Source: a virus
Taxonomy: Duplodnaviria > Heunggongvirae > Uroviricota > Caudoviricetes
Length of the DNA: 16,552 bases
Virus record (IMG/VR): IMGVR_UViG_2585427768_000007
Direction: 5' to 3' (one strand)
The notes under the pieces: generated by a model
Seen by the model: the letters and a program-made list of their open reading frames with translations, nothing else
Databases searched by the model: none
What the model was told of the DNA's origin: nothing
Shown: positions 1,241-14,735 of the stretch, piece by piece
Numbering within the stretch: position 1 is the first letter of the stretch
How the letters are laid out: every line of letters starts with the position of its first letter
Position numbers and translations under genes: made by a program

Positions 1241-1306
1241 GTGGTCACGTGCCTTACAGCATGACCGCCGCCAATATAATTCAGAGACGGCGATCAGGGT
1301 TGAACA

Positions 1307-1849
1307 TTAAAAATCAACCGGATTCGGGATCAGTTTTTGCCAGATTGCTGAAACGTATTTTGCCTGGTGACGGGCGTCATCCAGTGCATTGTGGCGAACG
1401 CCTTCGAATGGAATAACGGTTCTAGCATCAAAGTCGATTGTTTTTCCCAGCTCAACGATTGTGCGTACATCGCGATCGTTGTGGTAGCGCCACGGGCAGG
1501 GGATTCCCTGTCGTTCGTATGAACGGCGTAAAATTACGTTGTCGAAACTGGTTCCGTTGCCCCAGACCTGAACAAAAAACTCACCAGAGTTTTCGTCGAT
1601 AAATTCCCGTAATTGTAACAGTGCATCATCTAACGGGATTTCATCAGCCAGAATGGCAGACTGCGCTTCGCGCGATTGCTTAAGCCACCACTTAACGGTG
1701 TCCCGATCAATGACACCGCCAGCAGTATCCAGATCGATAGTCTTACTAAATTCCGGTCCCATATCTCCGGTTTGCGGATCGAAAAATATTGCACCTATTG
1801 AGATGATCGGGGCATCAGGATTTTTTCCCATGGTTTCAAGGTCGATCAT
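1307..1849 (-). CDS. DEDDh-type 3'-5' exonuclease (DnaQ/RNase T-like), phage early protein
   Basis: 180-aa ORF with Exo I motif MIDLETMG (D and E), Exo II region VWGNGTSFD and Exo III motif HNALDDARH. Confidence 0.75.
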   Translation of the reverse strand: MIDLETMGKNPDAPIISIGAIFFDPQTGDMGPEFSKTIDLDTAGGVIDRDTVKWWLKQSREAQSAILADEIPLDDALLQLREFIDENSGEFFVQVWGNGTSFDNVILRRSYERQGIPCPWRYHNDRDVRTIVELGKTIDFDARTVIPFEGVRHNALDDARHQAKYVSAIWQKLIPNPVDF

Positions 1850-1856
1850 CAGATGG

Positions 1857-2063
1857 TCACACGTCCTGCTGGTGGATATGATTATGATGACTGTTCACCG
1901 CAATTAAGGGATTTGCCATCTCGCCAGTTTCATCACCGCTATCGCCATGCTGAGCGCCACCAGCGCTCTCCTTACGAGAATGCGCAGCGCCTTCCATTTC
2001 CTCCGAATCTTTTTCAACCAGATACTCTTCATCGAATGTTTCCTGATATGTTGCGTCACCCAT
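1857..2063 (-). CDS. Small acidic hypothetical protein
   Basis: ATG at 2063 overlaps the TGA stop (2056-2058) of the upstream segment (ATGGGTGA), suggesting translational coupling. The longer 72-aa form starting at 2075 is possible. No recognised domain. Confidence 0.4.
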
Positions 2064-2334
2064 AACAGCCCACAATCAGGACAATTGCCGCCGCCAGCCC
2101 GACCGCAAGCAGTGCAGCTTTTTCCACTTCCTGTTGCGCCACTGGCTCTGACTGTTGCACTTCTGGCCCGTTTTGTAACGCATCCGGGCTGTTTTGTTCC
2201 GCTTTCTGGTAGTTCCGTTCCAATTCATGCTGATTCTGGTACACAGAATCGCGAGTCTGGATCCCCTCAACCCACTTCGGATCATTCGGGTCGCTAATTC
2301 CTTCAACAAATTCACCACGTGAGACAGCAAGCAC
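2056..2334 (-). CDS. C-terminal segment of phage early protein, with a hydrophobic helix ([17 protein letters not shown])
   Basis: Typical codon usage only in this frame. It opens at a GTG directly after an in-frame TAA with no Shine-Dalgarno, so it is more likely the tail of the upstream frameshifted gene than an independent gene. Confidence 0.4.
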
Positions 2335-2401
2335 TTATCGGCGTCAGGCTGGCTGATATTGGCTGCCTGCATAATTTTGTTTACTTCGTCAGCGGTAACT
2401 T

Positions 2402-3193
2402 TTACCGGCCCTGGTTGTGCGATCGTGTCAGATGCACCAGTATTTTGTTGTGAACCTGAGTACGTACCGTTTTTACGGGCGAAATATTCCTCTTTCGTGA
2501 TTTCAGTAGCCCCAGCGCCAGTGCCTTATCCAGACCAGAAAGTTTGTTTGCGCGACCGTATTTTTCGCCGTCCTTATCGGTGAAAAGGAAGTAGAACGGT
2601 CCCTCACGCTCTACAGATGGTTCGTCTTCCACTTCGCATTCGGTTTTTTCGTTGTCCGGCATTGCCGTTTCCACTGCATCAGTTTCTGGTACTGGTGACG
2701 GGAGAGTACCAGCTGTGCCCTGATTTGTTCCTTCGTCATCTTCAAACACGCCCTTGGTAGTCAGGTATTCAGTGATGTATTTGTTCAGTGCTACGGGATC
2801 TTTGTGAATGTCGATCGGACGCTCACGGACAAGGCCAAAAATAGTCTGACGGTCGTAGCGAACGGCATCAGGCTGTTTGCGCATTGATGCCGAAATACGC
2901 TTCCAGTCTTCGCGATCGTTGTCGATAACTTCATTTTTTGCCCAGCGATGGATGCTGCCGTCAATGTTTCCGGTATCAATATCGCCAGGCCAGAGAGCGT
3001 AGGCCAGTTCTTCATCCAGCGTTTTCCATGTCTGCTTGTATTCGCGACAAATGGCGGCAGTGACTGGGTTGATTTTTCCTGCTGAGTTTTCAGTGTTCTG
3101 TTGATTGACTCTGGCGCTGGCGAGATCAACAACAGACGTGTATTTTCCAGTCTCCTTGCGCTCACCGTCCCGACGTTTTTTCCAGATACGCAT
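2402..3193 (-). CDS. Middle segment of phage early protein (acidic), in -1 frame relative to the 3765 start
   Basis: 263-aa ORF. Protein-like composition and common codons from 3193 to about 2510; the last ~35 codons use rare codons (cta, cga, agg, ata, cgg) and look like out-of-frame read-through. ATG at 3193 is preceded directly by TGA. Confidence 0.45.
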   Translation of the reverse strand: MRIWKKRRDGERKETGKYTSVVDLASARVNQQNTENSAGKINPVTAAICREYKQTWKTLDEELAYALWPGDIDTGNIDGSIHRWAKNEVIDNDREDWKRISASMRKQPDAVRYDRQTIFGLVRERPIDIHKDPVALNKYITEYLTTKGVFEDDEGTNQGTAGTLPSPVPETDAVETAMPDNEKTECEVEDEPSVEREGPFYFLFTDKDGEKYGRANKLSGLDKALALGLLKSRKRNISPVKTVRTQVHNKILVHLTRSHNQGR

Positions 3194-3765
3194 TCAGCCT
3201 GAATTTCGGGCCATTTGGCACCAGGATTACATTTATGCTTAACCCACCCGATAGCAAACAGCTTAAGCTCCGGATACATAGCGTTAACATCAGGCATTTT
3301 CATCAACGCTTCAACGATATGCCCGTCAAAGGTAGCAACGTCTTCCTGCAACAATTCCTGCGCGCCAATAACCATATCAACGGTGATGTTTTCACATGTA
3401 CCGAACTTAACCAGGACAGCGTTCTGTACTTCAAGGGACAGCTTGTCAAAATTGACGTTCATCGGATCGGATTCAGTCTCAACCGGGACAAAGGAAGCAG
3501 ACTCCTCATCCCAGCGGTTTTCCTGCATATATTCAGCATCCCAGGAATCGAGGGCAGGGCGGGGTATACCGGGTTTATCCTCGCAGACAAGAAATTTATA
3601 AGCGCAGTCCTGAGCAGCCGGATAATGTTCCAGGAATTGCCAGTGAAATTTTGCGCGGGCGCGACGTTCATCACCGGCTTCAATGGCAGTGGCTACAGCG
3701 ACGGCACCTTCTTCCTTTATTGCCTGTTCGTCCGGAATAGCGGCGCAAATAAAGACTTTACTCAT
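2791..3765 (-). CDS. N-terminal segment of phage early protein (first ~197 codons genuine, remainder out of frame)
   Basis: Shine-Dalgarno GAGGT upstream of ATG 3765. Composition is protein-like up to the A6 run at 3176-3181; after that the frame yields S/T/L/R-rich low-quality sequence while the -1 frame becomes protein-like. Confidence 0.5.
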   Translation of the reverse strand: MSKVFICAAIPDEQAIKEEGAVAVATAIEAGDERRARAKFHWQFLEHYPAAQDCAYKFLVCEDKPGIPRPALDSWDAEYMQENRWDEESASFVPVETESDPMNVNFDKLSLEVQNAVLVKFGTCENITVDMVIGAQELLQEDVATFDGHIVEALMKMPDVNAMYPELKLFAIGWVKHKCNPGAKWPEIQAECVSGKNVGTVSARRLENTRLLLISPAPESINRTLKTQQEKSTQSLPPFVANTSRHGKRWMKNWPTLSGLAILIPETLTAASIAGQKMKLSTTIAKTGSVFRHQCANSLMPFATTVRLFLALSVSVRSTFTKIP

Positions 3766-4032: not shown

Positions 4033-4221
4033 TCACTGCTGTTCTCCGATAATACCAAGTTCAAGAAGGGCAATTCTGGAAAGTATGGAATTATCATTGA
4101 GAAGATAAGGTTCATATTTTCTCATCTTAATGGCATCTTCAGTAAACTCCCGGTTACTGAGCAGAACACCAATATCAAAACAACCTTCAGACGTATTAAC
4201 GTTTGGTAATAACGTTTCCAT
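4033..4221 (-). CDS. dicB: Cell-division inhibitor DicB homolog
   Basis: 62-aa ORF beginning METLLPNVNTSEGCF...FTEDAI, matching my recollection of Qin DicB in length and N-terminal half. GAGGA 7 nt upstream of ATG. Lies directly downstream of DicF as in Qin. Confidence 0.8.
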   Translation of the reverse strand: METLLPNVNTSEGCFDIGVLLSNREFTEDAIKMRKYEPYLLNDNSILSRIALLELGIIGEQQ

Positions 4222-4392
4222 TATCGCGTCCTCAACAATGAATTTTGTGATGCGGTGCCTGGTGCCTCCAGGTGACGTTAACCAGTTAACAATTAACGCC
4301 GGATACAGAGAATCCACCCATAACACTGTTTTTGGTTTTAACTGTTCCGCGTGCGCTCAGCCGCATTCACCACATCACAAAATTCACTTTAA

Positions 4393-4448
4393 AAAGGGCG
4401 GCAGAGCAGTCACGGAGTAAAACTGATACCGCCAAACGTCACCAGAAA
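4393..4448 (-). ncRNA. dicF: DicF small regulatory RNA (ftsZ-targeting sRNA)
   Basis: Minus strand reads TTTCTGGTGACGTTTGGCGGTATCAGTTTTACTCCGTGACTGCTCTGCCGCCCTTTTT, which matches the E. coli DicF sequence as I remember it, including the terminal GC stem and U-tract. Confidence 0.8.
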
Positions 4449-4753
4449 ATTGATAACAGAGGGCGTTGCAGCGGGGTTGTCACTTAAGCGTATGGTCAAC
4501 CTGACAACCCGGTGTCCTCAACGGGGGAAGAAATACCCCCGCCATACTTACCGCCGCGCCATTTCGCGGATTGCCACAACCGGAAGCGCACGATCGAATT
4601 AAATTTAACGACGACCTATACAGAGAGACTAACTTCTCCGGGCGCTTTCGTGTTATGCCCTGACTTTTCAGGGATATATCCTTTTCAGTAAACTGTCAGT
4701 GCCGGATTCTTATCCGTGTCCGGCGCACGCACTCTACCTCACCTGTGAATAAA

Positions 4754-5128
4754 TTAATGATTAATCGATATTTTGTTGTTTGATTCAACTTTCCCATCGG
4801 ATGTGTGATGCTTTAAATCACAGGAATTAATACTGCTTGCTGTAAAATGATTTTCAAGGGGAGCTATTCGAATCCCTTTCTTTTTCATTAACAAGCCAAA
4901 TCCTTTATTAATGATGTCCATTAATTCCAGAAAGTATTTTTCATGTAAATCCTGGTTATCAGAGAGCTGCTTCTCTTCGTACAGCCCGATAAAGGCTCGG
5001 CGTACGTTACCGGATATATTGTCGATGGTTTCTTTTTCTACGGTACTCAGGTCAAGAGTCGCCAGTTGGGAACGAACTATATTCGCTGCCATTTCCTGGA
5101 ATTGCATTGGTAAATCTTTAAATTCCAT
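4754..5128 (-). CDS. Hypothetical protein (AT-rich insert between the ydfC-like gene and dicF)
   Basis: 124-aa ORF with GAGG 8 nt upstream of the ATG. Visibly more AT-rich than flanking phage genes. No recognised motif. Confidence 0.55.
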   Translation of the reverse strand: MEFKDLPMQFQEMAANIVRSQLATLDLSTVEKETIDNISGNVRRAFIGLYEEKQLSDNQDLHEKYFLELMDIINKGFGLLMKKKGIRIAPLENHFTASSINSCDLKHHTSDGKVESNNKISINH

Positions 5129-5150
5129 TATTAGCCTCGTTGGTTAGCTA

Positions 5151-5369
5151 TTAACGCGGGTATGTAATCATTCTGGCAATGCTTAATGCCGCTGCTTTTT
5201 CCAGATTAGTGATATCCTGCTCCAGAGCGGACAGATTTTCAGCCTGCTTAGCCCTGGCTTCATTGGCCCATTTCAGATCCTGCGCTGCATTAATTTTCTG
5301 GTGCATCCACTCATAAAGTTCATCATCGGTATAGTCTGGCGCGATGATGACGGGTTCTCGTTTCTGCAT
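5151..5369 (-). CDS. ydfC: YdfC-like small prophage protein
   Basis: 72-aa ORF with GAGGA Shine-Dalgarno. Same size and position as ydfC in the Qin ydfA-ydfB-ydfC-dicF-dicB operon. Confidence 0.6.
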   Translation of the reverse strand: MQKREPVIIAPDYTDDELYEWMHQKINAAQDLKWANEARAKQAENLSALEQDITNLEKAAALSIARMITYPR

Positions 5370-5953: not shown

Positions 5954-6244
5954 TTAACAGGTTTTGTTTGGATACTGTCTTCGTGAGTGAACTACATTTA
6001 CGATCTCGATGTTAGATGCTGTTACTCGGTAAAGTATTATGTAGTTAGGATGAGTCACTATCTCACGAAGACTTGGAACTCTTTCGCTCGGTGGGTACAG
6101 ATAAGGGTGTTCAGTAAGTGACAAAACTGATGTTTCAATGCGTATTTTTAGTCTACGTGCAGCGGGAGGGTTTTCCTTAGCAATATAGGCTACGATCTGA
6201 CGTAAATCATCACGTGCAGAAGGTAGCCATAAAATGGGCAGCAT
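5954..6244 (-). CDS. Type II toxin, RelE/ParE superfamily (ParE-like)
   Basis: 96-aa ORF with ParE-like conserved layout (W near N-terminus, DL..I..YI, central proline-rich segment, ILYRV, H.RR near C-terminus). Start ATG overlaps the antitoxin stop by 1 nt. Confidence 0.8.
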   Translation of the reverse strand: MLPILWLPSARDDLRQIVAYIAKENPPAARRLKIRIETSVLSLTEHPYLYPPSERVPSLREIVTHPNYIILYRVTASNIEIVNVVHSRRQYPNKTC

Positions 6245-6435
6245 TACTCACTCCTGTTCGTTGCAGCTAATTGAGCAATAAGGTTTTCCATTTCAGCCAT
6301 TACTTCGTCATGTGGAATTGCAGGACGGGGATCTGAGAGGCTTGCTGCCACTTTGGTTCGCAACCATTCGTTATAGCTGTTTTCTTGTTCGACTGTTTCA
6401 AATTCAGAAATTATCGGGGAAAGGGCTGTACTCAT
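6244..6435 (-). CDS. Cognate antitoxin (ParD-like, putative)
   Basis: 63-aa acidic ORF immediately upstream of and coupled to the toxin. Strong Shine-Dalgarno GAGGAGG. Antitoxin-first order is typical of ParDE/RelBE modules. Confidence 0.7.
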   Translation of the reverse strand: MSTALSPIISEFETVEQENSYNEWLRTKVAASLSDPRPAIPHDEVMAEMENLIAQLAATNRSE

Positions 6436-6452: not shown

Positions 6453-6953
6453 TTAGGCGCGACGACCCTTTTGCGCAGCTAGCCATCGCGCAACGATTTC
6501 TTCAATTGATTCTTTTTTCTCCTTCATTTCCTTAAGCATTTTCTCTTTATCTTCTTTGGGGAAAGCCCTGAACGTCTGGAGCAAATCCCGCTCCATGGGG
6601 TCTATATTAAACGGAAGTTCGTTTTCCGATTGTTCCATATCTGCAGATATAGTGACAACATTGTCCTCCCCAGATTCTTGGGGATACATCCTTACAATTT
6701 GTAACAACTCGGCCATATCTGGTCTGATTGACTCGGGAGGAACTTGCAGCAACCCTGCGAACTTGATAACAGCCTCAAGATTTAAAGGTGTCTGACCATT
6801 TAGATAATGGCTTACAGCTCCCTGTGTCGAAAATCCCAGAATTTCTGCCGCACGCTCTTGGGTTAACCCTAGTTGATTTTTTTTCGCCGTCCAGATTTCT
6901 TTCAGTCTCTGGGCGGCTTGCAGGTCGATCTCTGACAGGGATTTTCTTTTCAT
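6453..6953 (-). CDS. Prophage repressor, XRE-family HTH (CI/DicA functional analog), no S24 peptidase domain evident
   Basis: 166-aa ORF; HTH segment LTQERAAEILGFSTQGAVSHYLNG; charged coiled-coil-like C-terminus; divergent from the Cro-like gene across an operator-rich intergenic region. Confidence 0.8.
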   Translation of the reverse strand: MKRKSLSEIDLQAAQRLKEIWTAKKNQLGLTQERAAEILGFSTQGAVSHYLNGQTPLNLEAVIKFAGLLQVPPESIRPDMAELLQIVRMYPQESGEDNVVTISADMEQSENELPFNIDPMERDLLQTFRAFPKEDKEKMLKEMKEKKESIEEIVARWLAAQKGRRA

Positions 6954-10502: not shown

Positions 10503-11696
<1,194 letters not shown>

Positions 11697-11853: not shown

Positions 11854-12540
11854 ATGACCCCAATAAAAATATTTATGACTATTGCTGATTTCAAACGGCC
11901 TAAATTGGAACTCCCAAACGGGGCAAACAAACTACTACTGCACTCTTGCTGTGCTCCATGTTCCGGTGAAGTGATGGAGGCGCTTCAGGCCTCGGGAATC
12001 GACTACACCATCTTTTTCTACAACCCGAACATTCATCCTCAGAAAGAGTATTTAATTCGTAAGGATGAAAATATTCGCTTTGCTGAACAACACGGCGTGC
12101 CGTTTATCGATGCTGATTACGACACCGACAACTGGTTTGAACGTGCCAAAGGAATGGAATGGGAGCCTGAGAGGGGGATCCGTTGTACCATGTGTTTTGA
12201 CATGCGTTTTGAGCGGACAGCGTTGTACGCTGCTGAAAATGGTTTCAGTGTGATCAGCAGTTCACTGGGCATTTCACGCTGGAAAAATATGCAGCAGGTT
12301 AACGAGTGTGGGCGGCGAGCTGTTGCGCATTATCCGGGTATGGTGTACTGGGATTATAACTGGCGCAAGCAGGGCGGCTCGTCCCGTATGATTGAAATCA
12401 GCAAGCGCGAAAAATTCTATCAGCAGGAATATTGTGGCTGTGTGTATTCTCTGCGCGATACCAATCTACACCGCAAATCTCAGGGACGCCCTCTTATCAA
12501 AATTGGCCAACTCCACTACGGAAAAGAAGAGAAGGAGTGA
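11854..12540 (+). CDS. QueH-like protein (DUF208; epoxyqueuosine-reductase family), putative
   Basis: 228-aa ORF with [11 protein letters not shown] near the N-terminus, NPNIHP, RC..CF, and C-terminal [10 protein letters not shown], matching DUF208/QueH cysteine motifs as I recall them. Family assignment is from memory. Confidence 0.55.
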
Positions 12541-12610
12541 TTTTATGGATCACCTTTCTGATTGATTTCATATTGGCGAGGTGACGTGAGTTAAGTAGAA
12601 TTGCTGCGGG

Positions 12611-12635
12611 TGCCTGAGGCTGTCTGCCTCAGGCA
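12611..12635. promoter_or_regulatory. Perfect 10-bp inverted repeat (TGCCTGAGGC-TGTCT-GCCTCAGGCA) between the queH-like and methyltransferase genes
   Basis: GC-rich hairpin with no U-tract; each arm contains a CCTNAGG heptamer. Candidate attenuator, operator or RNA-stability element. Confidence 0.4.
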
Positions 12636-12718
12636 TGAACACCAAAAGGCAGATAGAGAAAGCCCCAGTTAACATTACGCGTCCTGTAAGACGCTCAACA
12701 TTAATCTGAGGCATATGG

Positions 12719-13843
12719 ATGCGGATGAAAGAATTAAATAAATTCAGAGTGATAGACCTCTTTTGTGGGGCAGGTGGATTATCTTATGGTTTTCTTCATG
12801 GAGAGATGTCTGACTACTTTGAAAGTATCCTTGCTATTGATAATAATGCTGCAGCTATAAATACCTACAATGCCAATTTTGGTTTGCATGGAGTTCAGGC
12901 AAATATTGAGGAGTGGGCATCCAGCAATACTGTTCCTGAGGCTGATGTGGTCATAGGTGGCCCCCCGTGTCAGGGATTCAGTTTATTAAATAAGAATCGT
13001 TATGGTGATCACCGAAGAGCATTGTGGGAGCCTTATATGGATGTCATTGAGCGTTCAAGGGCTTGTATGTTCGTCATGGAAAATGTCCCCGGATTGCTGA
13101 TAAGCGATGAGTTTGCGGACATTACGTTTAGAGCGAAATCCATGGGCTTTATTCTGCTTAATCCAATGGTGTTGAATACTGCTGACTATGGAGTACCTCA
13201 GACAAGAAAACGAACGATAGCAATCGGTATCAAACGAGAACTCTTCGATGTGCATAGTATTCCGGCGTTCCCGCCAGCACCAACGCATCGTTCCCCTGAT
13301 AAGGATGTCGCTTTGCCTGAATGGGTCTGTACGCGTGATGCAATTGGTGACTTACCTGCTCCTGTTGGAACTGATATTCGTAATGAACTTCCTCCGCTGA
13401 ACTTACATTTTGGGCGTAATCCCACACCTGTTTCTCTGGAGCGATATAAAGCGGTTCCACCAGGAGGTAACCGTTTCGATTTACAGAAAAAAAGACCTGA
13501 TATAACCCCGGCGTGCTGGCTAAAAAAGAAATCTGGAGGGACCGATTTGTTTGGACGTCTGTGGTGGGACAGACCTTCAGTAACGATTCGTACTGAGTTT
13601 TTCAAACCGGAGAAAGGGCGATATTTACATCCGGAAGAGGATCGGCCAATAACTCATCGTGAGGCAGCGAGATTAATGTCTTTTCCTGATAATTTCATTT
13701 TTACCGGTTCAAAAACTGAGATTGCAAAGCAGATCGGGAATGCTGTTCCACCGCTATTTGCGGCAAAAATCGCACAATATGTGTATGGAGTTTTGCAGGG
13801 ACGGTATAAGAATAACATCAGTAAGAATAGTCAAGCAGCCTGA
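12719..13843 (+). CDS. DNA (cytosine-5)-methyltransferase, Type II R-M modification subunit
   Basis: 374-aa ORF with canonical m5C motifs in order: I DLFCGAGG, IV GGPPCQGFS, VI ENV, VIII QTRKR, IX REAARLMSFPD, X GNAVPP. GAGG 8 nt upstream of the ATG. Confidence 0.9.
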   Translation: MRMKELNKFRVIDLFCGAGGLSYGFLHGEMSDYFESILAIDNNAAAINTYNANFGLHGVQANIEEWASSNTVPEADVVIGGPPCQGFSLLNKNRYGDHRRALWEPYMDVIERSRACMFVMENVPGLLISDEFADITFRAKSMGFILLNPMVLNTADYGVPQTRKRTIAIGIKRELFDVHSIPAFPPAPTHRSPDKDVALPEWVCTRDAIGDLPAPVGTDIRNELPPLNLHFGRNPTPVSLERYKAVPPGGNRFDLQKKRPDITPACWLKKKSGGTDLFGRLWWDRPSVTIRTEFFKPEKGRYLHPEEDRPITHREAARLMSFPDNFIFTGSKTEIAKQIGNAVPPLFAAKIAQYVYGVLQGRYKNNISKNSQAA

Positions 13844-13856
13844 AGGAAATCCAGAA

Positions 13857-14735
13857 ATGAATGGAGATTTGGTTGACAGCATAGTTGGTTTTGCTGAAGC
13901 CAGAAAGGAGTTTCATGCCCAATTGTTACTGAATACGCTCACAATTAATACTGCCGGAGTTGTTAGTAACGCAGATAGCAGTAACAAAAACAGTAAAGCT
14001 ATAGCAAGAGAAATTGCTCGCTTCTTGCAGGCTGAAACGATTGGTGAACGTGTTGCAGGGCAAACATCTGGTAATCAGTTTGAGAGTATCTGCGCAGAGT
14101 TTATAGAAAAAACCTTTTTTAAACTCAGCCACTTACGCCCTGGAAAATGGAATGTACATCAGGTTTCTGGTAGAAACAGATTAGAGATAGCTAAATATGA
14201 ACAATATGCCCATCTTATAGCATTGGATAGTGCTGCAAAAAGTAATCCTCAGCTAGCTGCTGCACTGGGGAGTGATTATACGATTTCACCAGATATTATT
14301 GTTGAAAGAGAACCTGAATGTGATCAAGTTATCAACAGTCCTGAATTACTGGTGGATGATTCTGTTACCCGCATGTCAGCTCTCAGGAGTTCGAATGGTG
14401 GGAAACCAATATTACACGCAAGTATTTCCTGCAAATGGACAATAAGAAGCGACCGGGCCCAGAATGCTCGTTCTGAGGCATTAAATCTTATTCGCAACCG
14501 TAAGGGAAATCTCCCTCATGTAATGGTTGTTACTGCTGAGCCTACTCCAAGTCGTCTGGCGTCTATTGCTCTTGGTACTGGTGATATAGATTGCGTGTAT
14601 CATTTTGCGCTTTATGAACTTATATCAGCAGTTGAAATACTGGGGCTCAGCGATGCAGCTGACATGCTTTCCGTGATGGTTAATGGTAAAAGATTAAAGG
14701 ATATTTCTGATCTTCCCTTGGATCTTGCAGTCTGA
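13857..14735 (+). CDS. Type II restriction endonuclease, putative (NgoMIV/Cfr10I-like PD...SxK...E arrangement)
   Basis: 292 aa from ATG 13857, 14 nt after the methyltransferase stop (the track ORF starting at 13722 overlaps the methyltransferase). P145-D146, S191-x-K193, E207: the D-to-K spacing of 47 and K-to-E spacing of 14 equal those I recall for NgoMIV (D140, K187, E201). Confidence 0.6.
   Translation: MNGDLVDSIVGFAEARKEFHAQLLLNTLTINTAGVVSNADSSNKNSKAIAREIARFLQAETIGERVAGQTSGNQFESICAEFIEKTFFKLSHLRPGKWNVHQVSGRNRLEIAKYEQYAHLIALDSAAKSNPQLAAALGSDYTISPDIIVEREPECDQVINSPELLVDDSVTRMSALRSSNGGKPILHASISCKWTIRSDRAQNARSEALNLIRNRKGNLPHVMVVTAEPTPSRLASIALGTGDIDCVYHFALYELISAVEILGLSDAADMLSVMVNGKRLKDISDLPLDLAV

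Follow-up and report, generated by a model that had tools for sequence, protein, structure and literature searches.

A Variably Present Gene of a Narrow Protein Family between ydfC and dicF in a Lambdoid Prophage Early Operon

Gene Content of the Locus

The IMG/VR virus record IMGVR_UViG_2585427768_000007 (Caudoviricetes) is a stretch of DNA of 16,552 nucleotides (nt), referred to here at its full length as the window, that carries an early operon of the dicBF type. An open reading frame (ORF) of 124 amino acids (aa) lies on the minus strand of this window between ydfC and the small RNA DicF. An initial annotation, made from the letters of the sequence, had noted an extra gene at this place and had taken it for a horizontally acquired insertion. 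Here, we describe evidence that the ORF is a protein-coding gene under selection, that it occupies a polymorphic slot in the operon, and that it was probably lost from Escherichia coli K-12 rather than gained by the window. The features on which the argument depends, all on the minus strand, are as follows.

4754..5128, minus strand: 124-aa protein-coding gene, from its ATG start and with the stop codon included (ORF list; PHROG 6937; RefSeq ‘hypothetical protein’)
5135..5138, minus strand: Shine-Dalgarno (SD) motif GAGG, 6 nt ahead of the ATG of the 124-aa ORF
4964..5128, minus strand: N-terminal module, codons 1-55, a conserved helical hairpin (PHROG matches, alignments, structure prediction, GC content)
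4757..4963, minus strand: exchangeable C-terminal module, codons 56-124, the most AT-rich part (GC content, exhaustive search, model confidence)
5151..5369, minus strand: ydfC (RefSeq annotation of the JKHS016 locus; alignment to K-12; PHROG 1744)
4448..4753, minus strand: conserved untranslated dicF leader, which opens with the box GAGTGCGTGCGCCGGACACGG at 4714-4734 (K-12 alignment)
4396..4447, minus strand: DicF small RNA (Rfam RF00039, full length, 76.7 bits against a gathering score of 48, E 9.4e-16)
4033..4221, minus strand: dicB, a downstream gene of the operon (Pfam DicB PF05358, E 1.8e-37; coordinates mapped from RefSeq)

The best-matching genome is that of strain JKHS016, in which the ORF is 100% identical (WP_032178987.1) and the upstream gene is named ydfC by RefSeq; the ydfC of the window also aligns closely to that of K-12. 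Read on the minus strand, 22 nt (TAGCTAACCAACGAGGCTAATA) separate the ydfC stop from the ATG of the ORF, and the 306-nt gap between the ORF stop and DicF is the conserved untranslated leader. The K-12 leader can be aligned from just past the ORF stop, and the box GAGTGCGTGCGCCGGACACGG was found in all states of the slot. Pairwise alignment of the window with the Qin prophage of K-12 revealed one clean gap, which covers the 124-aa ORF; between the ydfC stop and the box there are 416 nt in the window but 55 nt in K-12, so that the two loci differ by 361 bp. The ORF list, the RefSeq name of ydfC, the Rfam match to DicF, and the gap relative to K-12 therefore bear out the initial annotation in placing an extra gene here, as does the GAGG 6 nt before its ATG in the matter of a ribosome-binding site of its own. 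Its statement that ydfC stands directly before dicF in Qin is correct in that no annotated gene lies between them, but a stretch of 340 nt intervenes.

The arrangement is that of an operon, with the order ydfA-ydfB-ydfC-ORF-dicF-dicB-ydfD on one strand, short gaps, and a position between a dicA-type repressor gene and dicB. The GAGG with its 6-nt spacer is likewise present where ydfA, and not ydfC, is the upstream neighbor. The start of the dicF leader, directly after the variable slot, also features a hairpin, GCCGGA-(12 nt)-TCCGGC at 4705-4732 (minus strand), the loop of which varies by slot state (ATAAGA in the window; GTGAGC or GTGCGC in others) and which is a possible processing or boundary element.

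Coding Capacity and Taxonomic Distribution

The ratio of nonsynonymous to synonymous substitution rates (dN/dS) was 0.13-0.39 in all six pairwise comparisons of four alleles from different genomes, in both halves of the protein. Given these ratios, and as far as sequence comparison can tell, the 124-aa ORF is a genuine, selected protein-coding gene. Genes of this type were detected by megablast in 881 of the 5426 complete E. coli genomes, with coverage of at least 80% in 702. Clustering of the protein at 90% identity yields 640 member sequences, every named one of which is a ‘hypothetical protein’. The family is reported in Escherichia coli, E. albertii, E. marmotae, and some Salmonella, and Shiga toxin (Stx) phages encode a 147-aa relative in their early-left operon, where it adjoins a DUF2303 gene. 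A scan of species-representative genomes identified only three loci, two from E. albertii and one, a distant copy, from Xenorhabdus.

These data bear on the possibility that the ORF is non-functional or decaying and hitch-hikes in the dicF precursor transcript. The prophage is decayed elsewhere, with a broken recE-like gene and 20 gap openings over 10.9 kb relative to JKHS016, and about 40 C-terminal residues of the protein are predicted at very low confidence. However, purifying selection is evident in every pairwise comparison, the frame is intact in hundreds of genomes (the 702 with near-full coverage and the 640 cluster members), and the SD motif is conserved. We therefore regard decay as extremely improbable.

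Protein Family and Predicted Structure

The 124-aa protein matches PHROG 6937 over its full length (residues 1-124 to profile positions 1-124 of 124, E 9.7e-79), whereas PHROGs 1363, 2151, 9419, and 33007 match the N-terminus only (the first 52-63 residues). All five are annotated as ‘unknown function.’ When 1.84 billion representative proteins were searched with a profile, there were only 49 matches, nearly all of which cover residues 1 to approximately 50-65 and then continue into unrelated C-termini, with total lengths of 31-208 aa. In an exhaustive search, the C-terminal part was seen solely with this N-domain or as short fragments. Proteins with unrelated C-termini have in common an N-terminal pattern, MEFKDLP...IDN..RNVR.AF.GLY, and residues M1, K4, L6, P7, Q11, A14, A15, and F46 are invariant in an alignment of 23 sequences.

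Structure prediction with AlphaFold2 (AF2) from the 23-sequence alignment yielded a helical hairpin (helices 8-24 and 32-55) with block-mean predicted local distance difference test (pLDDT) scores of 82-87 over residues 1-50. A third helix (61-84) was predicted with lower confidence (pLDDT 60-66 over residues 51-80), and residues 85-124 scored below 50, with a sole short helix at 93-97; the C-terminal tail is thus predicted to be disordered. The hairpin was confident only with the 23 diverse sequences, since 11 sequences gave a poor model (pLDDT 59). The hairpin is acidic (isoelectric point 4.65), and the whole protein is hydrophilic (grand average of hydropathy, GRAVY, -0.46) with no obvious membrane-spanning stretch. 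Collectively, these observations define a narrow, uncharacterised family of enterobacterial lambdoid-prophage proteins in which an acidic helical hairpin, formed by some 55 N-terminal residues, is conserved and the C-terminal part varies from member to member. A lambda N-like antiterminator was considered separately and rejected on reading the sequence, as the N-terminus is acidic and has no arginine-rich motif.

Searches for a function with the 124-aa protein yielded no matches in PADLOC or NCBIfam, and the sole Pfam match, to VLPT, was below threshold (15 bits versus a cutoff of 27). Searches of PDB sequences with the single protein and with the 23-sequence profile gave chance-level matches only, and Foldseek searches of PDB and BFVD returned nothing at E <= 0.001; the best Foldseek match was an uncharacterised 52-aa protein of phage phi191 that was also among the tblastn matches to the N-terminus. 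Neither the other C-terminal variants nor the convergent partner genes described below gave anything informative when scanned against Pfam, PADLOC, and PHROG. The literature searched on the dicBF operon, dicF, dicB, and ydfA/B/C does not mention the 124-aa gene, and a figure of dicBF conservation marks non-conserved genes near dicF merely in white (PMC5069750). The homology and structure checks proposed in the initial annotation thus identified a family (PHROG 6937) and a predicted hairpin, but no functional lead from sequence or fold. The superinfection-exclusion or anti-defence role that the initial annotation suggested derives from the position of the gene, and neither PADLOC, Pfam, and NCBIfam nor the PHROG annotations back it by homology.

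A conserved N-domain, many C-terminal types, and a narrow family would fit an arms race, and the gene lies in an early operon beside host-directed inhibitors and encodes a small, acidic protein with a disordered tail. Such properties might be expected of an early counter-defence protein (anti-restriction or anti-abortive-infection) with a C-terminus that tracks host defences, which would be a special case of the modulator reading developed below. However, nothing specific points to this function: the only Foldseek match of this kind, to the anti-CRISPR AcrIIC4, is at chance level (E ~7, probability 0.06), and a C-terminal dN/dS below 0.4 shows no sign of positive selection within this allele type. 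We consider a counter-defence role unlikely.

A Polymorphic Slot with Convergent Small Genes

Some match to the ydfC-to-dicF stretch was found in 4339 of the 5426 complete E. coli genomes. A K-12-like, empty junction between ydfC and the leader, called where at least 80% of a 131-bp junction probe was matched, was present in 2704 genomes, and the N-terminal module of the family was identified at 1589 places in 1358 genomes. A survey of presence and absence, as suggested in the initial annotation, therefore reveals that the gene is not conserved in all dicB-operon prophages (2704 empty junctions and 881 genomes with this gene). The family gene occupies the slot in many diverged dicBF prophages and in phage Evi. 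Annotated examples include loci where it directly follows ydfA, with ydfB and ydfC missing, and a family protein with a different C-terminus and a total length of 135 aa is encoded in the locus of O157:H7 strain F6321, in a PPompW prophage record, and in phage Evi.

Many relatives have a small convergent gene that adjoins the family gene or overlaps with its 3′ end. In E. coli, this gene is of one of three types, which are 73, 77, and 91 aa in length and unrelated to each other. A survey of slot states against alleles in 80 IMG/VR loci (individual loci are denoted by L and a number) gave the following associations.

Alleles at least 94% identical to that of the window (L015-L052): no convergent gene; 308-310 nt to DicF where DicF was detected
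Alleles 81-85% identical: convergent gene mostly of the 73-aa type; 547-552 nt to DicF
Shortened alleles, in which matches stop at residue 106-108: convergent gene nearly always of the 91-aa type; 586-593 nt to DicF

Convergent genes in relatives, all on the minus strand and of 60-91 aa, are located as follows.

L003: 2041-2316
L004: 2127-2360
L006: 2365-2586
L008 and L009: 3886-4119
L014: 1837-2019
L010: 1500-1772

The window is without a convergent partner gene. It differs from L006, a locus with the 73-aa partner, by a clean 237-bp indel that corresponds to the partner gene. A search for the three partner types in 39 IMG/VR loci with full-length alleles at least 89% identical (L015-L053) identified none. 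The flank beside the start codon of all three E. coli convergent types is identical, TTCACCCTCCTGAGGGTTGGTAATTAAGGAGTTCTCCACGG, and carries their ribosome-binding site. These observations demonstrate that the slot between ydfC (or ydfA) and the dicF leader is recombination-prone and exists in three states: empty, with the family gene alone as in the window, or with the family gene and a convergent gene.

The site of the convergent genes resembles a cargo site transcribed antisense to the early operon, and inspection of the vicinity of the cassette for an antisense promoter that would serve these cargo genes revealed no convincing site. Elsewhere, a promoter-like match (TTAACA, 16-nt spacer, GAGAAT; 9/12) lies between dicF and dicB at 4286-4313 (plus strand) of the window, antisense to the operon and pointing towards DicF. 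The same site occurs in L006 (3080-3053) and L004 (2854-2827), and its conservation may merely reflect that of the region overall.

A small convergent gene recurs at the 3′ end of the family gene, with three types in E. coli and further examples in Xenorhabdus and L010; all three E. coli partner types have one conserved flank at their start codon, and a clean indel distinguishes the window from L006. These observations could indicate that the 124-aa gene is the orphaned half of a convergent two-gene module, in which, as in pore-forming colicin/immunity layouts, an inducible sense gene was accompanied by a constitutive antisense antidote or regulator that has been lost here. However, a near-identical sense protein (residues 1-97) is found with either of two partners, 73 and 91 aa in length and unrelated to each other, and none of the 39 loci searched has a partner, which speaks against an obligate specific pairing; moreover, the partners belong to no known families. 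We thus give this reading only a slim chance. The narrower proposal of a specific toxin/immunity pairing with the antisense gene was rejected on the grounds that a sense protein that hardly differs is found with either of two unrelated partners, or without any.

Gain or Loss of the Gene

In empty alleles (those of K-12, UTI89, and two more), the sequence across the junction is ...CAACGAAGCTAA|GGTTGGTAATTAAGGAG.... The GGTTGGTAATTAAGGAG of these alleles is the flank that lies beside the start of the convergent gene in occupied loci, and GAAG or AAAG stands at the place of the SD motif GAGG of the family gene. Because empty alleles retain both part of the flank of the convergent gene and a weakened SD, they are most simply interpreted as the outcome of a deletion of the two-gene state, followed by decay of the orphaned SD.

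Distant relatives provide a second line of evidence. A contig of Xenorhabdus stockiae (L014) carries a CI/LexA-like repressor gene and, about 600 bp downstream of it, a gene for a 50-aa, N-domain-only protein. One more ORF is listed between the two, and a 60-aa convergent gene shares 4 nt with the 3′ end of the N-domain gene. In a metagenomic contig (L010; Logan SRR23513778), an ORF at 1028-1486 comprises a YdfC-like part (PHROG 1744, E 9.3e-12; BLASTP E 1e-9 versus the YdfC of the window) fused to the N-domain, and is followed by a convergent gene. Since distant relatives keep the arrangement and empty alleles retain flank sequence characteristic of occupied loci, we infer that, quite probably, the family gene is an old component of this type of operon and the empty state of K-12 represents a loss. 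The description of the gene as inserted or horizontally acquired in the initial annotation probably had the direction wrong, given the distant relatives with the same arrangement, the flanks of the empty alleles, and their weakened SD.

The L010 fusion has valine at the position of the initiator methionine of other copies, which would match a GTG codon and thus a possible internal start. The fusion hints at a functional link of YdfC with the family of the 124-aa protein; it comes from a single short contig, in which an assembly error is possible.

Base Composition and Transcription Signals

The GC content of the 124-aa ORF is 37.3% (39% at third codon positions), as compared to 47.0% for ydfC, 51.0% for the dicF leader, and 48.6% for the whole window. 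The ORF is the most AT-rich 375-bp stretch of the window, the lowest GC content elsewhere being 38.4%. The low GC is unevenly distributed, with 44.0% in codons 1-53 and 32.4% in codons 54-124, and is not unique in the region (dicB, 40.8%; RelE-like gene, 41.6%), although the ORF is still extreme. The GC content is thus clearly below that of the flanking genes, as had been annotated, mainly because of codons 54-124.

A consensus scan of the ORF region detected no promoter signal above chance (seven sites versus 6.8 expected from shuffles). The sole promoter-like site near the gene, a 9/12 match at 5154-5127, overlaps the ydfC stop, and no terminator-like site was found between the 124-aa ORF (4754) and DicF. 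In contrast, a strong terminator-like hairpin follows the RelE-like gene (5939-5922, minus strand) and a promoter-like site precedes ydfA (5892-5864), both of which fit the known layout of the dicB promoter, dicBp. This promoter is repressed by DicA, is relieved by the antirepressor Rem or by spontaneous switching, and drives ydfABC-dicF-dicB (PMC10448788). Because the 124-aa gene is without transcription signals of its own, its transcription would depend on the dicB promoter and be confined to times at which DicA no longer represses, and its own GAGG would serve for translation. By inference, the gene would be silent in a repressed lysogen and its product made alongside DicF and DicB on derepression, which argues against an exclusion role that protects the lysogen, unless an unrecognised internal promoter exists.

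These results bear on the interpretation of the gene as a moron. Hendrix and colleagues reportedly defined morons, for HK97/HK022-type genomes, as additional genes that separate two genes which would otherwise adjoin. A classical moron would be a recent, autonomously transcribed gene that is expressed from the repressed prophage and protects the lysogen, for example through superinfection exclusion. Several observations are consistent with this: its neighbors are found in K-12 Qin without it, the gene is the most AT-rich stretch of the window, its position is roughly that of ral/sieB in the textbook lambda pL operon, and DicB expression from the same operon has been described as protecting the host from phage infections (PMC10448788). 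However, the gene has no promoter or terminator of its own, lies 22 nt from ydfC, and keeps its SD spacing whichever gene is upstream. Moreover, its N-terminal third has a near-normal GC content (44%), distant relatives hold the family in the same arrangement, no PADLOC, Pfam, or annotated-PHROG match was found, and the protein is hydrophilic with no obvious membrane span, unlike typical membrane exclusion proteins. A classical moron is therefore very unlikely. Variable presence between the same neighbors and deviating composition do agree with the moron reading of the initial annotation, but a promoter and terminator of its own are lacking, and the gene does not appear autonomous, as it follows ydfC after 22 nt on the same strand with no promoter above chance and no terminator before DicF.

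Proposed Function and Implications

The reading that we favor, and hold to be somewhat more probable than not, is that the 124-aa gene is genuine and belongs to the early operon under DicA control as an accessory gene, an old and operon-embedded part of it that was deleted in K-12, with a modulator as its product. The modulator reading draws on the small size of the protein, on its helical hairpin and disordered tail, and on its place in an early operon where other genes encode inhibitors of host proteins, namely DicB and, in some relatives, Kil. DicB is a MinC-dependent inhibitor of division. Speculatively, the 124-aa product would be a small, cytoplasmic, protein-binding modulator like its neighbors DicB and Kil; the conserved hairpin would hold a constant partner, for which the L010 fusion makes YdfC a candidate, and the variable C-terminal part would set specificity towards a factor of the host or of a competing phage.

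Several points weigh against this interpretation. Microhomology at the junctions is 1-2 nt at most, so the direction of the indel is unprovable from the junctions, and a two-gene cassette may instead have been inserted into an empty site. The link to YdfC rests on one 1.8-kb metagenomic contig, and approximately half of the surveyed loci are without ydfC upstream, with ydfA as the neighbor instead. Finally, the promoter scan was a crude consensus search that could miss a real internal promoter.

An extension of the modulator reading, which we consider quite unlikely, is that the family with the MEFKDLP N-domain forms a modular effector platform of lambdoid early operons. Here, the hairpin would dock on YdfC, to which it is fused in one distant relative, the C-terminal modules would antagonise host-defence or competitor-phage proteins, and the downstream slot would hold antisense cargo expressed in the lysogen, together forming a hitherto undescribed diversification hotspot, which would have escaped notice through its loss from K-12 Qin.

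The dicBF operon is a model for the effects of cryptic prophages on host division, metabolism, and phage resistance, and nearly all work on it has been conducted in K-12, where the slot is empty. Roughly one in four complete E. coli genomes, among them those of O157:H7, O26, and O111 strains, has a family gene in the DicF/DicB transcript, and phenotypes of operon derepression in such strains could involve this unstudied protein. The model operon of K-12 is probably a reduced version. Taken by itself, the 124-aa gene is an ordinary accessory gene, hypothetical and without a predicted activity; the combination of a conserved N-terminus, a swappable C-terminus, and a variable antisense cargo site makes it a candidate for functions in phage-host or phage-phage conflict.

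Other Features of the Window

A toxin-antitoxin pair (RelB-like and RelE/ParE-like; 5954-6435, minus strand), followed by the strong terminator-like hairpin, separates ydfA from the dicA-type repressor gene (6453-6953). K-12 Qin is empty here. The site corresponds in place to rexAB in lambda, so that lysogens probably transcribe the pair together with the repressor gene. JKHS016 has an intact recE-like exonuclease gene of 2469 bp. In the window (approximately 1284-3765, minus strand), the gene is split into several ORFs, including ones of 324, 263, and 180 aa. The two sequences differ by 20 gap openings over 10.9 kb, which could reflect real decay or sequencing error of the indel type.

A type II restriction-modification pair, comprising a DNA cytosine methyltransferase and an NgoMIV-family endonuclease, is encoded at 12719-14735 (plus strand) and adjoins a QueH-like gene (11854-12540) and an IS5 transposase (10535-11551). 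These names follow JKHS016, 99.3% identical over that stretch, as annotated in RefSeq. Between the QueH-like gene and the start of the methyltransferase gene, the sequence at 12608-12788 (plus strand) matches the Rfam model of sok, the antitoxin RNA of hok/sok, at a borderline score (61.0 bits versus a gathering score of 59).

Comparison with Known Systems

The family resembles polymorphic effectors, such as pore-forming colicins with their immunity genes on the opposite strand, in its conserved N-terminus and variable C-terminus and in the small convergent gene that lies downstream in many relatives. It differs from colicin/immunity layouts in that it has no toxin or immunity domain, its partners do not co-vary and the partner is absent in the window, and the 124-aa protein has no recognisable secretion or export signal.

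Among phage protein families, the 124-aa protein is a full-length member of PHROG 6937 and has its N-domain of about 55 residues in common with PHROGs 1363, 2151, 9419, and 33007, whereas the C-terminal part is specific to PHROG 6937. Membership in this PHROG names the gene but does not explain it.

With DicB, Kil, CIII, and Ral, which are small proteins of lambdoid early-left operons directed at the host, the protein has in common an encoding gene in the same operon or an equivalent position, a similar size, and an expression that is expected only after inactivation of the repressor. There is no sequence or profile similarity between these proteins and the 124-aa protein, and only the latter is built from a conserved N-terminus and an exchangeable C-terminus.

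Like lambdoid morons, the 124-aa gene is small, variably present between the same neighbors, and of deviating composition. Unlike them, it is without the defining promoter and terminator, is embedded in a repressed early operon, and is presumably co-transcribed with it, and its wide distribution suggests an old, often-lost component of that operon rather than a recent gain.
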